The notes under the pieces are model-generated. The model worked only from the letters and a program-made list of their open reading frames with translations. It was not told where the DNA came from and ran no database searches. A DNA stretch of 64,000 nt from an uncultured Acidobacteriota bacterium (GTDB lineage Bacteria > Acidobacteriota > Thermoanaerobaculia > Multivoradales > UBA5704): positions 503,098 through 567,097 of the forward strand of contig CAVWNC010000004.1 in NCBI GenBank assembly GCA_963756455.1, read 5' to 3'. Both the position numbers and the translations under genes were made by a program. Numbering within the stretch: position 1 is the first letter of the stretch; each line of letters starts with the position of its first letter. This document shows positions 1-6,905 of the stretch, piece after piece.

Positions 1-681
1 CAGGGGCTCTTCGGCGGCGGGCTCGCGGCCGTAGACGCGGAGGAATCGGCGGAGGGACGCGACGCCGCGGGCCTGGGCCTCCGGCGTCAGCTCGATTCCC
101 AGGAAATGGGGCAGGAGGTGGTTCCTTACGAAGTCGCCCTGCTCGCTCCCCTCGCCTCCCTCGCCCCGATGCCAATCCGCCTCCAGGGCGAGCCGCCAGG
201 AGGCGCGCAGGAAGTTCATCGAGCCGGCGGCCGGGTCGAGCAGGCGAACCCGGGGGTCGGCCAAGCCGGCGCTCCAGCCGAGCTTCGTCTGGAGCAGCCG
301 GTGGACCGAGCGCGCCAGGTAGCCGGTGAGCGCCGGAGGCGTGGCATAGATGCCACAGCGGCCGCGGACGTCCGCCTGCAGGCTTGCCCGCCGCCCCTTG
401 CACACGTGCCCCGAGAGCCGGCTGCCGCGGAGCGCCACCTTGAGCCCCAGGGCCTCCCCTTCGTCCCCACAGGCGACGACCGCGAGGCCGCGCTGCCGCA
501 GGTCGCGGAAGAGGGTTTCGACCCCGCGGCCCAGCTTGGGAAGCCAGGGGATGTCCTGCGAGATCCGGGAGACGTCTTCGATCTCGTCTGCGGTCGGCAC
601 GAATTGGAGCACCAGGTGCCAGGTCTGGCCCGGCCGGGTGAGCGCATGTTTCAAGACGTCGACGACGGAAAGAGCTTTCAT
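1..681 (-). CDS. 5' part of a gamma-class N6-adenine DNA methyltransferase gene (type IIG / Eco57I / PglX-like); 3' end lies beyond the window start
   Basis: Reverse-strand frame is open from ATG at 681-679 to position 1, and is absent from the ORF track because it has no stop. Translation reads MKALSVVDVLKH... and contains GIYATPPALTGYLARSV followed about 40 aa later by LLDPAAGSMNFL. This is the TPP-x-x-V motif followed by AdoMet motif I (LDPAxGSGxFL), in the order seen in M.TaqI-like gamma-class amino-MTases. Confidence 0.5.
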   Translation of the reverse strand, partial: MKALSVVDVLKHALTRPGQTWHLVLQFVPTADEIEDVSRISQDIPWLPKLGRGVETLFRDLRQRGLAVVACGDEGEALGLKVALRGSRLSGHVCKGRRASLQADVRGRCGIYATPPALTGYLARSVHRLLQTKLGWSAGLADPRVRLLDPAAGSMNFLRASWRLALEADWHRGEGGEGSEQGDFVRNHLLPHFLGIELTPEAQARGVASLRRFLRVYGREPAAEEPL

Positions 682-692
682 GGTCGGAGGGG

Positions 693-983
693 TCAGACGC
701 GGGCGGGCTGCTGGTAGTCGGCGGCGGCTTGGAGCGTCTCGATCAGCGGGTCGAGGCGATCGTCGAGCACGATCGCGGCCACCGCCCGGATTTCCGTCAG
801 CACGTCGAGCTCGTCGGGCATGTCGACGTCGGCGATCTCTTCCGGGGAGGGAGGAATGCTGGCGTGCAGCTGGACGAGCCGATCGCGGACGCCCTGCAAG
901 GTCACGACGATCGCCCGCAGCATGGCCCGAGCCACTTCGATCTCCTCGTCTCCGCCGGTCCTCAGCGCTCCCGTCTTCGCCAT
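693..983 (-). CDS. hypothetical 96-aa protein immediately upstream of the methyltransferase gene
   Basis: ORF track 693..983(-). AGGAGA RBS about 10 nt upstream of the ATG at 983. Stop lies 12 bp before the MTase ATG. No recognisable motif. Confidence 0.4.
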   Translation of the reverse strand: MAKTGALRTGGDEEIEVARAMLRAIVVTLQGVRDRLVQLHASIPPSPEEIADVDMPDELDVLTEIRAVAAIVLDDRLDPLIETLQAAADYQQPARV

Positions 984-987
984 CGCT

Positions 988-1188
988 TCAGGCTCTCCTT
1001 TCCCGCGCGAGGCGGAGCGCCCGCCGTCCCCGTCCGTCCGCGATTCGCCAGAGCGGCCGGGTCACGGCCGCGCACGAACGGCAGCCGGAGAGGAGGTGGC
1101 GGACGATGGCGCGGCTTTCGGTCTTCGAGGTCTCCCCTCGGAGGAAGCCGAGGAGCAGGGTGGGGTGGGGATGTTCGCGGTCTCGCAT
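988..1188 (-). CDS. possible small zinc-finger protein with an HxxxCxxC motif (anti-sigma zf-HC2-like)
   Basis: Internal ATG at 1188 of ORF 988..1419(-) gives MRDREHPHPTLLLGFLRGE...VRHLLSGCRSCAAV, which resembles LxxxLDGEL...HLxxCxxC of zf-HC2 domains. Its stop overlaps the RBS of the next gene. The upstream part of the track ORF crosses an AT-richer promoter region and was discarded. Confidence 0.25.
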   Translation of the reverse strand: MRDREHPHPTLLLGFLRGETSKTESRAIVRHLLSGCRSCAAVTRPLWRIADGRGRRALRLARERRA

Positions 1189-1400: not shown

Positions 1401-2909
1401 ATGACGAGGAAGCGTTCACCCGAGGCTCTGGCCCTGCTCTACCTGCGCCTCGCCTTCAATTGGGGGATCAAGAAGCTGGCGGCGGCCCTCGGGTTTTCGA
1501 GCGAGAAGCACCTCGCCGGCTACGAGACGGGCGAGCGGCCGCTCAGCCGCGACTACCTGGACACCCTCGTCGCTCCGCTCGGCGCCCCGCCGGAGGCGGT
1601 CGACGTCCTGCTCTGGGTCCACGAACGGATCGTCCCCAAGCCCGAGGAGGAGACCGCGCCGGCTTCACCGCTCGACCTCACCCCGGTCGAGCGCTTCAGA
1701 ATCTTCCGCACCGCCCTCGCCGCCGGGTGGGCGCTGGCGGAGAGGCTCGTCACGGAGCTGACGCGGCAGAAAAAGGCGCAGAAGCTGGCGGCGGTCCGGC
1801 GGGCGGCGCAGGAGCTCGCGACGCGGTTGAAGTCGGTTGCGTCGCAGAAGCGGCGGGTGTTGCTCGATCTCTTCCCGGAGTTTCGGAGTTGGGCCGTCGT
1901 GGAGGCGCTCAGCCACGACAGCGAACGGGCGGCCTCGCACTCGGTCGAGAACGCGATGGAGCTCGCCGAGCTCGCCGTCTACGTCGCCGAACGCCTGCCG
2001 GGTGGGGAGGCGGAGCGGGCGAGAGCCGCGGGTTATGGCTGGTGTTACATCGCCAACGCGCTCCGGGTGGCGACCGAGTTCGACCGGGCCGCCGAGGCCA
2101 CGAAGCGCTCCTGGAGACTCTGGCAGGCCGGGGAACCCGCCCGCGCGCTGCCGCTCGCCGAGTGGCGTTTGTGGGATCGCGAAGCGTCCCTGCGGCGCGA
2201 GCAGCAGAGGTTTCCGGAGGCGCTGGAGAGCATTGAACGAGCGCTTGCCTCCTGCGACGGCGAACCTGCGGCGGCTGGGCGCATCCTCCTCAACAAGGAT
2301 GCCATTCTCCATCAGATGGGCGACTTTCAGGGCGCTCTCGAAGCCTTGGTGAAGGCTGCTCCTCTCGTCGAAGCCACGGCGGACCCCAATCAACTCTTCG
2401 CGCTTCGGTTCAACCGGGTTGCCCACCTGTGCGCTTTGGAACGCTTCGCGGCGGCGGCGGCCCTTCTGCCCGAGGTCCGCGAGATGGCAGTCGACCAGGG
2501 CAGGAGATTTCACCTGATCCGGCTGCGGTGGCTGGAGTCCAAACTGATGGCCGGGCAAGGGCAGACCGAGGAGGCGAGGGCCTGTCTGGAGCAAGTCTGC
2601 CAGGAGTTCGCGGGTCTGGATCTACCCTACGAGGCGGCACTCGCCGCGCTCGAGCTGGCAGTGATCGACCTCGAGGCAGGGCGCACCGCCGAGGTGCGGG
2701 AGCTCACGCTTACCATGCGCCGGATCTTCGAGCATAAGGGTATCGCGCGGGAGGCTATGGTTGCACTCGCCCTCTTCTGCGAGGCTGCCCGGCGGGAACG
2801 CGCTACTGTCGAATTGGCGCGCCAGGCAATCGCAGCAGTAGAGAGAGCGCAGCGCTCGGCCTCCCCGGCGACAAGCTGGCGGAGAGGCCGAAGAAAAGCT
2901 CGCTCCTAG
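1401..2909 (+). CDS. XRE-family helix-turn-helix regulator with a C-terminal TPR-like domain (paralog 1, intact)
   Basis: 502 aa. N-terminal ALALLYLRLAFNWGIKKLAAALGFSSEKHLAGYETGERPLSRDYLDTL is an HTH_XRE-like fold. The remainder is alpha-helical TPR-like repeats. RBS aggagggg precedes the start. Confidence 0.75.
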   Translation: MTRKRSPEALALLYLRLAFNWGIKKLAAALGFSSEKHLAGYETGERPLSRDYLDTLVAPLGAPPEAVDVLLWVHERIVPKPEEETAPASPLDLTPVERFRIFRTALAAGWALAERLVTELTRQKKAQKLAAVRRAAQELATRLKSVASQKRRVLLDLFPEFRSWAVVEALSHDSERAASHSVENAMELAELAVYVAERLPGGEAERARAAGYGWCYIANALRVATEFDRAAEATKRSWRLWQAGEPARALPLAEWRLWDREASLRREQQRFPEALESIERALASCDGEPAAAGRILLNKDAILHQMGDFQGALEALVKAAPLVEATADPNQLFALRFNRVAHLCALERFAAAAALLPEVREMAVDQGRRFHLIRLRWLESKLMAGQGQTEEARACLEQVCQEFAGLDLPYEAALAALELAVIDLEAGRTAEVRELTLTMRRIFEHKGIAREAMVALALFCEAARRERATVELARQAIAAVERAQRSASPATSWRRGRRKARS

Positions 2910-3268
2910 CTGTGGCAGCGGCCACCTGGGTCGATAACGCAGCCGGTGTCGGTGCTCGGCTTCGAGGCCCCCTCCGTGCAGCGGCCGTTCGGGTCGATCC
3001 AGCAGCCCAAATTGGTGCTCGCTTTGGGCGGTGCCGGTGGGACCACCTGCGTGGCACCGGTCAGGCAACGACCGCTCGGGTCGATCCAGCAACCCGTGTC
3101 GCTCCAAAGCCTTTGGAGGCTGCTCCAGGCGCGGTCCAAGATCGTCGAAGGGGCCGAGGCCGTCGTTTTCAGAGCCCTTCGCGGCGCGGCGACCGAGGGC
3201 CAGGGGAGGACGAGCACGGCGACGAACAGGAGGAAAAGGGTCTTGCGACGGAGAGAGAGGGTGGTCAT
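2906..3268 (-). CDS. small secreted protein/peptide precursor with three tandem GCWIDPxGRC repeats
   Basis: Second ATG (3268) of ORF 2906..3307(-) is preceded by a GGAG RBS. MTTLSLRRKTLFLLFVAVLVLPWPSVAAP is a signal peptide. It is followed by DTGCWIDPSGRC, NLGCWIDPNGRC and DTGCVIDPGGRC. The DNA shows three imperfect repeats of the core ggtcgatccagca (one copy variant ggtcgataacgca). The gene converges on regulator 1 and diverges from regulator 2. Confidence 0.6.
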   Translation of the reverse strand: MTTLSLRRKTLFLLFVAVLVLPWPSVAAPRRALKTTASAPSTILDRAWSSLQRLWSDTGCWIDPSGRCLTGATQVVPPAPPKASTNLGCWIDPNGRCTEGASKPSTDTGCVIDPGGRCHS

Positions 3269-3384
3269 GGAGGCTCCTGAGGAGAGGGGCTCCGCCGTGG
3301 CCGCCATGGCCCCGGGGGCGGCTCTCGATAAGAAAGGTGCACCAACTCACCATAACCGATGGAAAAACGAGGGAGGGGGTTGAC

Positions 3385-4836
3385 ATGGCGAAGAGGGGAG
3401 ATCCGAAGGTCCTGCGGTTCGTCGTGCTGTTCCTGCGCCACTATGCGGACCTGACCCAGGAGGCCTTCGGCCAGGCCGCGAGGGTCGACCAGGGGACCAT
3501 CTCGATTTACGAGGCGGGCGACAAGGCCCCACCGGAAGACGTTCTGCGGCGGATGGCGGTCGTGGCGCAGGTGCCCTGGCCGCTGGTGGTGCTCCTGCGC
3601 CGCTTCCTCACCGTCCTCTTCGCCTGGCTGGCTGGCGGGAGCGCGCTCGCGGTGCCGCGGGAGGGAACGCCGGCCGAAGAGGCAGCCCTGGAGGCGGCGC
3701 TTCTGGCGGTGGTCCCGTACCGGATCGAGGAGGCTGTAGCGGACGAGAACGGCCCCTCACCGGAGGAGGAGCGCCGGGAGGCCGAGGAGATCTGGGCCGG
3801 CCTGGAGCCCTTTCCGCTCGCCGAACGCCGGCGGTGGATCGAGCTCACCGTCCGCGCCTCCCGGAGTTGGGCCCTGGCGGAGAAAATCTGCCATGCCAGC
3901 GAGCTCGCGGCGGCGCACGAAGAGGCGATGGAGCTGGCGGTCCTCGCCATCTCGATTGCGGAACGGGTGCCGGACGAGGCGCGAAGGGCGCGCACTCTGG
4001 GCTACTCTGGGGGCTACGTCGGAAACGCTCATCGGGTCGCAACCGAATTCGAGCGCGCTCGGGCGGCCTTCGCTCTGGCCCGGGAGCACTGGAAGTCGGG
4101 TGAAGGAGCGCGTTCCCTACCCCTTGCCGGCTGGCGGCTGGAAGACCTCGAAGCGTCGCTCTACACCGATCGACGCCAGTTCCCCGAGGCTCTGGACTGT
4201 CTCAACCGGGCTTTAGCGGCCTGTGGAGACGATGCCTTGGCGGTCGGGCGTATCCTGACGAAGAAGGCGCATGTCCTGGAACAGTTGGGCGACCCCGCGG
4301 GTTCTCTCCAGGCCTTGGAACAGGCGACTCCCGCGATCGAAGCTTCTGGCGATCCGTAGCTCCTCTTTGAGCTTCGCTTCAACACCGTGGCCAACCTTGT
4401 CCACCTGGAGCAATATGAAAAGGGAGAGCGGCTCCTCGCCGAGGTGCGCGAGATGGCGGTCGCGCAAAGAAGGAATCTCCACCTGATCCGCCTGACGTGG
4501 CTGGAGTCTAAGGTAGCCGCCGGGCGGGGACGGACGGAGGAGGCGAAGGCCGGCCTGGAGCAGGTGATCCAGGAGTTCGCGGGCCTCCCCTATGAAGCAG
4601 CTTTGGCCTCCCTGGACCTGGCGGTGCTCCAACTCAAGGAAGGGCGCACGGCCGAGGTGAAGGAGCTGGCGGGCGCCATGGGCGGGATCTTCGAGGTCAA
4701 GGGGATCGCTCGGGAGGCGCTGGCGGCGCTTCGACTTTTCTGCGAGGCCGCGATCCAGGAGGGCGCTACGGTCGAGCTGGCGAAGCAAGTGATCGCTGAG
4801 GTGGAGAGAGCCCAGCGCGCGAGCTCTCCTGCGTAG
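3385..4836 (+). pseudogene. XRE-HTH + TPR regulator paralog 2, interrupted by an in-frame amber codon at 4357-4359
   Basis: ATG 3385 with a gagggaggggg RBS. ORFs 3031..4359 and 4387..4836 share one frame (both coordinate mod 3 = 1). Alignment to paralog 1 reads ADPNQLFALRFN against GDP*LLFELRFN, so a single nonsense change separates the halves. Confidence 0.6.
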
Positions 4837-4892: not shown

Positions 4893-5192
4893 CGTGGAGA
4901 CACAACAATCGGACCCAGAAGCCCATGGGAGGGGTTTCCGGACACTACGGCGAGCCGTAGAGACACAAGCGCTGGTCCTGGAGACACTACGGGAGGACGT
5001 AGAGCCACTACGCTTACGACTGTAGACACTACGGAACGATCCAGAGACACTACGTTTTCTGCTGGAGACACTACGAAACGAGCTGGAGACACAAGAAACT
5101 CTGGCGGAAGCGAAGGACACGGCCTGCCGTAGTGTCTCGCCGACCGGTTCCCGGGTGTCGACGGGGGACCTTTGTGTCTCTACGCCAGCAGG
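4893..5192. repeat. array of 21-bp tandem repeats (about 9 direct copies, consensus tgGAGACACTACG + 8 nt) plus 2 inverted copies, abutting the 3' side of tRNA-Leu
   Basis: Successive units include tagagacacaagcgctggtcc, tggagacactacgggaggacg, tagagccactacgcttacgac, tgtagacactacggaacgatc, cagagacactacgttttctgc, tggagacactacgaaacgagc and tggagacacaagaaactctgg. Inverted copies are cgtagtgtctc at about 5128 and tgtgtctctacg at about 5172. Track ORF 4857..5132 (DTT heptads) is its translation artefact. Confidence 0.7.
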
Positions 5193-5208
5193 GTACGAAG
5201 GTCCAGAG

Positions 5209-5291
5209 TGCCGGAGGCGGGACTCGAACCCGCATGCCCTTACGGGCGGAAGATTTTAAGTCTCCTGCGTATACCATTTCGCCACTCCGGC
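5209..5291 (-). tRNA. tRNA-Leu, anticodon UAA
   Basis: Reverse complement reads GCCGGAGUGGCGAAAUGGUAUACGCAGGAGACUUAAAAUCUUCCGCCCGUAAGGGCAUGCGGGUUCGAGUCCCGCCUCCGGCA. There is a 7-bp acceptor stem GCCGGAG/CUCCGGC, an anticodon loop CUUAAAA, a long variable arm and a GGUUCGAGUCC T-arm. CCA is not encoded. Confidence 0.8.
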
Positions 5292-6504: not shown

Positions 6505-6905
6505 AATCCCGTAGATCCACGCCAGGGGCAGGGTACTTTGGGCTTGGATCTATGTGGTTCCAGTTTGAAACCACGTAGATCCACGGCGGAAGTCGGGTGC
6601 TTTTGGCGTGGATCTAGGTGGTTCCAGTTTGAATCCACGTAGATCCACGGCGGAGACCGGGTGCTTTTTGTCGTGGATCTGGGTGGTCCTGGTTTGAAAC
6701 CACGTAGATCCACGGGCGGAGGCCGGATGCTTTGGACGTGGATCCAGGTGGTTCCAGTTTGAAACCACGTAGATCCACGGTGGAGGTCGGGTGCTTTTGT
6801 CGTGGATCTAGGTGGTTCCAGTTTGAAACCATGTAGATCCACGGTGGAGGTCGGGTGCATTGGACGTGGTTCTACAGGCTTCCGGTTGGGAACCCGTAGG
6901 CCCAT
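6505..6905. repeat. tandem array of about six 64-bp units, each with a 16-bp-arm hairpin (GTGGATCTAGGTGGTT-ccagtttga-AACCACGTAGATCCAC) plus a conserved 23-bp linker
   Basis: Units start at about 6543, 6608, 6673, 6738, 6802 and 6866, the last one degenerate. Linkers are ggcggaagtcgggtgcttttggc-like and conserved between units, so these are not CRISPR spacers. Every copy shares the same single G-G mismatch in mid-stem. Confidence 0.75.

Follow-up and report, generated by a model that had tools for sequence, protein, structure and literature searches.

A multi-copy cysteine-loop precursor and its convergent regulator gene in Acidobacteriota: a possible RRNPP-like signalling cassette

A small gene on the reverse strand of a 64,000-nucleotide stretch of DNA from an uncultured Acidobacteriota bacterium (contig CAVWNC010000004.1 of assembly GCA_963756455.1, positions 503,098 to 567,097; this whole stretch is called the window hereafter) encodes a precursor that combines a signal-peptide-like N-terminus with three nine-residue loops, each bounded by two cysteines. 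It ends against the gene of a regulator, HTH-B, that carries a helix-turn-helix (HTH) domain of the XRE type and a superhelix of tetratricopeptide repeats (TPR). The reading that we favour, at about even confidence, is that the precursor and HTH-B constitute a receptor/pro-peptide signalling cassette of an RRNPP-like kind outside the Firmicutes, the ligands of which would be multi-copy disulfide loops. Acidobacteriota abound in soil but are difficult to culture, and next to nothing is known of how their cells communicate.

The precursor gene and its family

The gene runs from an ATG at position 3268 to a TAG stop codon at 2906-2908 and specifies 120 residues, as established by reading and translating its open reading frame (ORF). 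Its features, with the evidence for each, are these:

2906..3268 (stop included), minus strand: precursor gene, with signal peptide, amphipathic helix and three Cys-loop repeats (ORF, homologues, codon-position evidence)
3274..3278, minus strand: Shine-Dalgarno (SD) sequence AGGAG, 5 nt upstream of the ATG (sequence; an equivalent (A)GGGAG is kept across 77 aligned loci)
3188..3268, minus strand: signal-peptide-like N-terminus, residues 1-27 (MTTLSLRRKTLFLLFVAVLVLPWPSVA), with predicted cleavage after SVA (hydropathy, charge and small-x-small heuristics; consensus; AlphaFold2 helix 4-20)
3101..3151, minus strand: conserved amphipathic pro-region helix, residues 40-56, ILDRAWSSLQRLW (family alignment; AlphaFold2 helix 40-56)
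3065..3091, minus strand: loop 1, CWIDPSGRC (translation, six-frame motif scan, family logo)
2978..3004, minus strand: loop 2, CWIDPNGRC (translation, six-frame motif scan, family logo)
2915..2941, minus strand: loop 3, CVIDPGGRC, followed by HS and the stop codon (translation, six-frame motif scan)

The product thus reads, in order, MTTLSLRRKTLFLLFVAVLVLPWPSVA / APRRALKTTASAPSTILDRAWSSLQRLWSDTG-CWIDPSGRC-LTGATQVVPPAPPKASTNLG-CWIDPNGRC-TEGASKPSTDTG-CVIDPGGRC-HS: GC-x-IDP-x-GRC loops joined by linkers of Pro, Ala, Ser and Thr, the final loop lying two residues ahead of the stop.

An earlier, sequence-only reading of this DNA had described a minus-strand ORF with three repeats of a core 13-mer, one of them variant, two Cys per unit spaced 8 apart, and a ribosome-binding site. 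All of this holds. Translation and a six-frame scan recover the ORF and its repeats, and the three loops are the only matches to the pattern C.IDP.GRC in the whole 64-kb window; the Cys stand at i and i+8 in each; the AGGAG is where a ribosome-binding site is expected; and the exact 13-mer GGTCGATCCAGCA occurs in the window at positions 2992 and 3079 only, with the variant GGTCGATAACGCA at 2929. The accompanying description as DNA-level tandem repeats was overstated, however. The DNA copies share 66-76% identity over 44-49 nt, they are unevenly spaced (63 and 87 nt), and Tandem Repeats Finder, run on positions 2700-3500, does not call them. Therefore, the repetition is mainly that of a conserved peptide motif and not the product of a recent DNA duplication.

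The precursor is a genuine conserved coding gene. In the minus frame, the G+C fraction at third codon positions (GC3) is 0.835, as compared with 0.55 and 0.64 at first and second positions. Among 86 distinct precursors taken from fetched loci, which form the set for the logo, signal-peptide and repeat counts given below, the invariant G, C, D, P, G and C residues are written with every synonymous codon, and repeat number and linker length change by whole codons. The minus frame is thereby upheld against its forward-strand antisense frames. Long forward-strand ORFs are indeed open (2912..3280 and 2946..3383), as is usual at 68% GC, and could suggest that the ORF is spurious and the true feature lies on the other strand; the chance of this is negligible, since the synonymous spelling of the invariant residues refutes it, GC3, the whole-codon variation and the 1,753 profile matches reported below stand against it too, and the forward ORFs are the usual antisense artefacts of such DNA.

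A word-indexed search returned 22 homologues, one of them from an annotated Thermoanaerobaculia and one a paralogue on the same 3.64-Mb contig. When a profile made from these 22 was run against 1.84 billion cluster representatives, it matched 1,753 at E <= 1e-3 and 742 at E <= 1e-10. The precursor matches no family in Pfam, NCBIfam, PADLOC or PHROGs, and so belongs to no defence or phage family of these collections; chi-conotoxin, the sole hit in the four of them, is insignificant (E 0.22). Full-text literature searches with the loop-motif strings return no record.

The search for homologues with variable repeat number, which the sequence-only reading had proposed, gave a clear answer: the 86 precursors carry one loop in 6 cases, two in 49, three in 25 and four in 6. 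They are 73-161 residues long, their interloop linkers span 4-38 residues rich in P, A, S and T, and in 73 of them only two residues separate the last loop from the stop. The logo of the loop reads [D/K/E]-[E/T]-G-C-x-I-D-P-x-G-[R/G/L/A]-C, in which G(-1), C1, D4, P5, G7 and C9 are essentially invariant and position 2 is hypervariable (3.25 bits, the highest in the loop). At position 2, His is found most often, in 47 of 195 loops, and it occurs at position 6 as well. In a Thermoanaerobaculum MAG (metagenome-assembled genome), one receptor gene is followed by three consecutive peptide genes (locus L067, 5552-6852, minus strand) with nine loops in total, His-rich at position 6 (C-x-[IL]-DPHG-x-C).

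The N-terminal family consensus, MxxxSLRRKTxLLLL..PWAxAA, has the marks of a signal peptide. A hydrophobic core is found in 84 of the 86 precursors (median 12-residue Kyte-Doolittle value 2.88), a net positive n-region in 82 and a small-x-small site in 84. The two precursors that fail these heuristics both start within about 100 nt of an end of the fetched DNA, and may therefore be incomplete. The signal peptide proposed by the sequence-only reading is thus supported by heuristic features in 84 of 86 family members, with a predicted cut after residue 27 (SVA27) in the precursor of the window. The amphipathic helix that follows has the consensus LDLLxRxWSFLxSLWS, in which W48 is invariant in the family alignment. 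An AlphaFold model of the precursor, of low confidence (predicted local distance difference test, pLDDT, 62), has two helices, three EE-----EE hairpins and disordered linkers; the precursor thus models as beads on a string.

The receptor candidate and its association with the precursor

The precursor gene is convergent with that of HTH-B, the two stop codons overlapping in the palindrome CTAG at a distance of -4 nt.

1401..2909, plus strand: HTH-B, cognate receptor candidate, 502 residues, with an XRE-type HTH, a long helix and an eight-repeat TPR superhelix (Pfam, AlphaFold2, Foldseek, coupling)

Genetic coupling of the peptide gene to this receptor is near-universal. Seven peptide-anchored neighbourhoods from other metagenomes have a common gene order, namely an HTH-TPR gene (often truncated), the peptide gene, a convergent and intact HTH-TPR gene of about 500 codons, and a divergent gene for a Cys protein of about 100 residues; everything beyond differs. 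In the reciprocal test, species-representative genomes were searched with the receptor alone, which gave 335 relatives, and the best 77 loci were analysed. All 77 come from MAGs of Thermoanaerobaculia, Holophagales or other Acidobacteriota, often with several in a genome. A peptide gene lies directly after the receptor stop, on the opposite strand, in 74 of them, and of the three loci without one, two are cut off by the end of their contig. In 51 of 76 peptide/receptor pairs, the two stops lie -4 to +7 nt apart, and all 76 fall within -23 to +125 nt. Relatives of neither the peptide nor the receptor were found among viral contigs (IMG/VR).

The sequence-only reading had called the product typical of a pheromone precursor or of a precursor of a ribosomally synthesized and post-translationally modified peptide (RiPP), while seeing no modification enzyme nearby. 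This absence extends to every annotated context: no such enzyme is conserved in the seven annotated neighbourhoods or appears as a conserved partner in the 77 loci, where the conserved partners of the cassette are regulators and the small Cys protein. The RiPP half of that description is thus disfavoured, whereas the pheromone half gains from the coupling just described and from the genes that flank the precursor, which on both sides encode XRE-HTH + TPR regulators according to Pfam. The disulfide loops and the secreted cyclic decapeptide that the same reading envisaged are inferred.

The Pfam matches of HTH-B itself are marginal: HTH_3 at residues 14-65 scores 21.4 bits against a cut-off of 23, and the TPR_2 and TPR_12 matches also lie below their curated cut-offs. 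The AlphaFold2 model, built on a 36-sequence alignment, is confident (pLDDT 89.2) and consists of a five-helix HTH (residues 7-77), a 50-residue helix (95-144) and eight helix pairs (164-486). Compared with the Protein Data Bank (PDB) by Foldseek, it retrieves TPR superhelices, first of all LGN/Pins complexes (E 3e-5), and the top 50 also hold RapJ-PhrC, RapH, RapF, RapI, the Rap of phage phi3T and MalT domain III. At the sequence level, phmmer finds no match to HTH-B in the PDB; a profile search finds HTH domains only, including lambda-repressor-like, HipB and C-protein HTH structures, and reaches the Rgg structures 4yv6 and 5w4m through the HTH alone (E 0.1-0.2). HTH-B has no transmembrane-like segment (maximum 19-residue hydropathy 1.3), its N-terminus being the HTH domain. 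As modelled, it is built like an RRNPP receptor, a likeness that does not establish shared ancestry with any RRNPP subfamily.

Two observations on the loops point to a specific relation with the receptor. Within a precursor, the residues at loop position 2 are identical with a frequency of 0.45, against 0.13 after shuffling, a ratio of 3.4; at the other variable positions, the ratio lies between 1.1 and 2.1 (1.37 at position 6, 1.28 at +1 and 2.06 at -2). This concordance is suggestive of a residue that defines a 'pherotype', and is more than the trace of recent duplication. Secondly, loop positions 2 and 6 appear to co-vary, with complementary chemistry, with residues of the TPR A-helices, which line the concave groove. 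For position 6, nine of the ten receptor columns with the highest mutual information lie in A-helices (172, 173, 175, 213, 256, 259, 260, 294 and 298), and for position 2 columns 301 and 341, which belong to the A-helices of TPR4 and TPR5, are the two best for the first and the last loop alike. Fifteen peptide columns taken as controls from the signal peptide and the helix place only about 2.3 of their ten best partners in A-helices, against a background of 23%. At position 2, R or H goes with D/E341 and D with K341; at position 6, D goes with K298 and aromatic residues with hydrophobic ones at 294 and with M260; and the unusual W/W/V found at position 2 in the window goes with Ala at 301, 341 and 231. 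We take these patterns as suggestive. Raw mutual-information z-scores were rejected as standalone evidence, control peptide columns being equally high. A comparison of cassettes within genomes was uninformative: an identical last loop was found in 0 of 62 pairs, where only about 0.6 was expected.

Leader region, neighbouring genes and other elements

Around the two genes lie three further features:

3282..3326, minus strand: GC-rich hairpin or imperfect palindrome, conserved, adjoining the SD sequence on its upstream side (77-locus alignment)
3385..4836, plus strand: HTH-A, a second HTH + TPR paralogue, divergent from the peptide gene, with an in-frame stop at 4357-4359 (Pfam HTH_31 and TPR_12; ORF table; receptor hidden Markov model, HMM)
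988..1188, minus strand: small Cys protein with a zinc-finger anti-sigma-like motif, divergent from HTH-B (motif and HMM scans)

Even very diverged loci share DNA-level conservation of the roughly 115 nt that separate the peptide gene from the divergent receptor gene. In the helix drawn by hand on the 77 loci, 84.5% of the cells can pair, compared with 35-59% when the partners are slid; 15 of the 18 pairs show changes on both sides, and there are 70 compensatory cells against 30.8 in shuffles (0 of 500 shuffles). The minimum free energy of the leader in the window is -28.3 kcal/mol, with a z of only -0.58, not unusual for its composition, and RNAalifold gives a weak consensus for the alignment (-1.28 kcal/mol). 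G-U cells outnumber A-C cells by 99 to 63, a count that settles neither the strand nor an RNA as opposed to a DNA role. An alternative hairpin that would sequester the SD sequence can pair in 84% of cells, yet shows no covariation. The leader region matches no Rfam family. Neither a sigma-70-like promoter nor an intrinsic terminator was found in positions 2700-3500, and no terminator-like site separates the convergent genes. Between the peptide gene and the divergent receptor gene (HTH-A in the window), some loci carry a palindrome, CATAGGnTATG, present as CCATAACCGATGG at 3350-3362 in the window and found also in L005 (1948), L007 (7911), L024 (5846) and L059 (5963); it is a candidate operator for the HTH proteins.

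The HTH_31 match of HTH-A passes the Pfam cut-off, and the receptor HMM matches on both sides of the in-frame stop. An independent Logan assembly shows the same split, so that HTH-A is probably a true pseudogene and the stop no error of sequencing. Other loci contain tandem receptor/peptide arrays (L002, L011, L017, L019, L022, L055 and L071); therefore, HTH-A is read as the remnant of a neighbouring cassette, probably a decayed receptor that has lost its peptide gene. The second receptor gene is frequently decayed, one instance being L009 (460-4693), in which the divergent receptor copy is cut to 204 residues beside an IS481 transposase and the reverse transcriptase of a group II intron.

The small Cys protein has the motif HP..(26 aa)..HLLxGCxxC (HP..x26..HLLSGCRSC in the window), which resembles the N-terminal motif of zinc-binding anti-sigma (ZAS) proteins with one extra residue before the first Cys; it has no Pfam or NCBIfam match. 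About 37 of the 77 receptor-anchored loci have it directly upstream of the receptor gene, as do L002 (11985-12287), L004 and L007; it is a frequent third member of the module and may be its regulated output. In L003, a gene for an extracytoplasmic function (ECF) sigma factor lies two genes beyond it.

At its left edge (1-681, minus strand), the window encodes the N-terminal part of a Type ISP restriction-modification enzyme, which shares 84% identity with its counterpart in L004 and 50% with that in L002. A conserved ORF of about 95 residues precedes it (693-983, minus strand). The corresponding stretches of the two other loci are L004 10224-12854 and L002 12284-15265. Three related cassettes, those of the window, L004 and L002, thus adjoin the same defence gene. 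The other flank of L004 carries a relaxase, MobC and AlpA, and therefore some cassettes ride on mobile or defence islands.

Two repeats lie farther off in the window. The sequence GAGACAC(T/A)AC occurs in eight direct copies at 4897-5095 (plus strand), seven of them at an exact 21-bp period, and in inverted copies at 5129-5138 and 5171-5180 (minus strand), between the decayed HTH-A and the 3' end of a tRNA-Leu(taa) gene (5208-5291, minus strand). The window holds 11 matches where 3.3 are expected, and the 86 other loci hold none. The array looks like one of iterons or arm sites beside a tRNA attachment site. A 64-bp unit is repeated 5.7 times at 6510-6874 with 85% matches and carries overlapping repetitive ORFs on both strands; since the whole 64-bp unit is conserved, this repeat is not CRISPR-like.

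A signalling cassette weighed against alternatives and known systems

If the precursor and HTH-B form an RRNPP-like cassette, the following course of events may be envisaged. The Sec machinery would export the precursor, the signal peptide being removed after about residue 27, and a disulfide formed in the periplasm would close each C-x-I-D-P-x-G-R-C into a nine-residue beta-hairpin loop with D-P-x-G as its turn. Cutting of the Pro/Ala/Ser/Thr-rich linkers would free two to four loop peptides per precursor, three in the present case. These would build up outside, re-enter the cell and bind in the concave TPR groove of HTH-B (1401..2909), altering its DNA binding; likely targets would be the divergent operon of the small Cys protein and the promoters of the cassette itself. 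Loop position 2, and position 6 to a lesser degree, would decide the fit to the receptor, so that several cassettes could coexist in a genome without cross-talk. The abutting convergent 3' ends and the conserved hairpin ahead of the ribosome-binding site would add antisense and leader-level control.

Several points weigh against such a scheme. Secretion, processing, disulfide formation, re-import and binding are all inferred steps. Topology is the main obstacle: with a cytoplasmic receptor in a presumably diderm host, the peptide would need two passages through the outer membrane and one through the inner. Strict conservation of the Cys pair is, moreover, hard to explain for a cytoplasmic ligand, because the cytoplasm would reduce the disulfide. 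The precursors are longer than any validated RRNPP pro-peptide, and the conserved amphipathic helix has no place in the proposed mechanism. Beyond the HTH, HTH-B has no sequence homology to any RRNPP receptor, and Foldseek ranks the eukaryotic LGN/Pins TPRs above Rap. As to the co-variation, its z-scores of up to 10 are, given shared ancestry, no higher than those of the control columns (5-8), which reach similar values because the sequences are related; the loop positions stand out from the controls only by the location and chemistry of their partners, and charge swaps such as that of D at position 2 with K341 rest on two cassettes.

In the strongest alternative, which we consider unlikely, the precursor would be a secreted effector, merely regulated by the HTH-TPR protein and not bound by it. 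The strict Cys pair would better suit a peptide that stays outside the cytoplasm. Multi-headed protease inhibitor, antimicrobial peptide and metal- or glycan-binding loop protein are candidate roles. Disulfide-stapled, repeated loops with invariant turn residues on a secreted protein are what one would expect of an effector, the nine-residue ring has the size of the reactive loop of the Bowman-Birk and SFTI inhibitors, and His at positions 2 and 6 could suit metal binding. However, the Bowman-Birk consensus C-T-P1-S-x-P-P-x-C is absent, His occupies position 2 in only about a quarter of the loops, and no conserved immunity or transporter gene is found nearby. An effector would leave unexplained both the co-variation of the hypervariable loop positions with the inner helices of the TPR and the pairing with a receptor in 74 of 77 loci amid changing surroundings. 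Even if the product were an effector and not a signal, some 1,750 clusters of a conserved secreted Cys-loop repeat protein without family assignment deserve a name.

Alternatively, the TPR groove might bind the loops of the pre-protein before export, as a private feedback on secretion load or redox state. This would accommodate the co-variation and a cytoplasmic receptor without any importer or passage of the outer membrane; reduced Cys are the natural state in the cytoplasm; and LGN/Pins, structurally the top matches for the TPR domain, bind polypeptides that are long and extended, not short peptides. On the other hand, the conserved Sec signal and the strict Cys pair point to an exported, oxidised form, and multi-copy loops, a C-terminal last loop and several cassettes per genome are hallmarks of diffusible pherotypes. 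We know of no precedent for the sensing of an unexported precursor, and consider this explanation distinctly improbable. Far less credible still is a multi-core RiPP precursor with its tailoring enzymes encoded elsewhere in the genome: core-like units are indeed repeated behind an N-terminal region, and thioether or other cross-links could be made on the Cys, but the seven annotated contexts and the 77 loci hold no conserved modification enzyme, the N-terminus is a Sec signal peptide and no leader for a cytoplasmic enzyme, and Sec export followed by spontaneous or Dsb-type oxidation needs no dedicated enzyme.

A wider claim, that this is the first RRNPP-type system outside the Firmicutes, we hold a little less firmly than the cassette itself, at somewhat under even confidence. 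It would comprise hundreds to thousands of cassettes in soil Acidobacteriota, with multi-copy disulfide-closed nonapeptide loops, pherotypes set by one residue, and a wiring of convergent transcription and leader hairpin. If true, this large, unannotated, multi-cassette family would offer a direct and testable handle on signalling in the phylum, since the peptides can be synthesised and the receptor models are confident; it would also raise the questions of how peptides travel across two membranes and what the disulfide is for.

The RRNPP systems used for comparison were Rap-Phr, NprR-NprX, PlcR-PapR, PrgX-cCF10/PrgQ, Rgg-SHP and AimR-AimP. Their operational signature (PMC10075063, section 15) is a TPR receptor of 250-500 residues, with an N-terminal HTH in all subfamilies except Rap, and a small ORF of 10-100 residues within -60 to 400 bp, the pro-peptide being exported through a Sec signal (called by SignalP) or PptAB; the same survey reports intragenic duplication of the mature unit for Phr and frames peptide quorum sensing by cytoplasmic TPR receptors as a feature of the Firmicutes. 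Set beside it, HTH-B has eight modelled helix pairs and, at 502 residues, is 2 over the upper limit, which we take as agreement; the N-terminal HTH, the heuristic Sec-like signal, the intracellular receptor and the distance of -4 nt agree as well. The small ORF, at 120 residues in the window and 73-161 in the family, is too long, an excess due to the repeats, and neither receptor homology to a known subfamily nor a host that is a Firmicute or a Firmicute mobile element is found. For these three reasons (length, receptor homology and host phylum), the cassette is described here as working like an RRNPP system and is not filed as a member.

The likeness is that of a two-gene cassette, in which a cytoplasmic XRE-HTH TPR receptor stands beside a small ORF with a Sec signal, tightly spaced, with a C-terminal candidate mature unit that is duplicated as in Phr; several diverged cassettes occur per genome, and some copies adjoin mobile-element or defence genes. 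Convergent peptide/receptor layouts, too, exist in Rgg-SHP and prgX/prgQ. The differences are no less marked. The hosts are Acidobacteriota (Thermoanaerobaculia, Holophagales), presumably diderm, and not Firmicutes; the receptor, of about 500 residues, has an extra 50-residue helix and shows no specific structural preference for RRNPP receptors; the precursors exceed the 21-50 residues of validated pro-peptides; the candidate ligand is a two-Cys loop, in contrast to a linear unmodified oligopeptide; and the cassette has a conserved amphipathic pro-helix and a conserved leader hairpin.

Precursors that are cut into multiple copies from repeats are familiar from yeast alpha-factor, from the Kex2-processed repeat peptides of fungi and from multi-core cyanobactin precursors. 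Like these, the present family has secreted precursors with several near-identical, spaced units, the number of which varies among homologues. Those systems are eukaryotic or cyanobacterial, however, and have dedicated enzymes, whereas the present gene has a transcription factor as its conserved partner and no linked enzyme. The reactive loop of Bowman-Birk and SFTI inhibitors, C-T-P1-S-x-P-P-x-C, is likewise a nine-residue, disulfide-closed structure, and resembles ours in its ring from Cys i to i+8, its proline-containing beta-hairpin loop and the presence of several 'heads' on one polypeptide. It differs in that its reactive-site sequence is absent from the present loops, where Pro takes another ring position; the partner is a regulator and not a protease; the linkers are disordered, with no knotted domain; and the precursor has no Pfam match to inhibitor families.

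Literature searches combining RRNPP with Acidobacteria found no report; those on RRNPP- or RNPP-like systems in other phyla or Gram-negatives, and on peptide quorum sensing in Thermoanaerobaculia, returned unrelated papers only, the one Thermoanaerobaculia peptide paper found dealing with lanthipeptide clusters. The cassette would thus add to systems of the RRNPP-like kind both a ligand type that has not been described and a new phylum.

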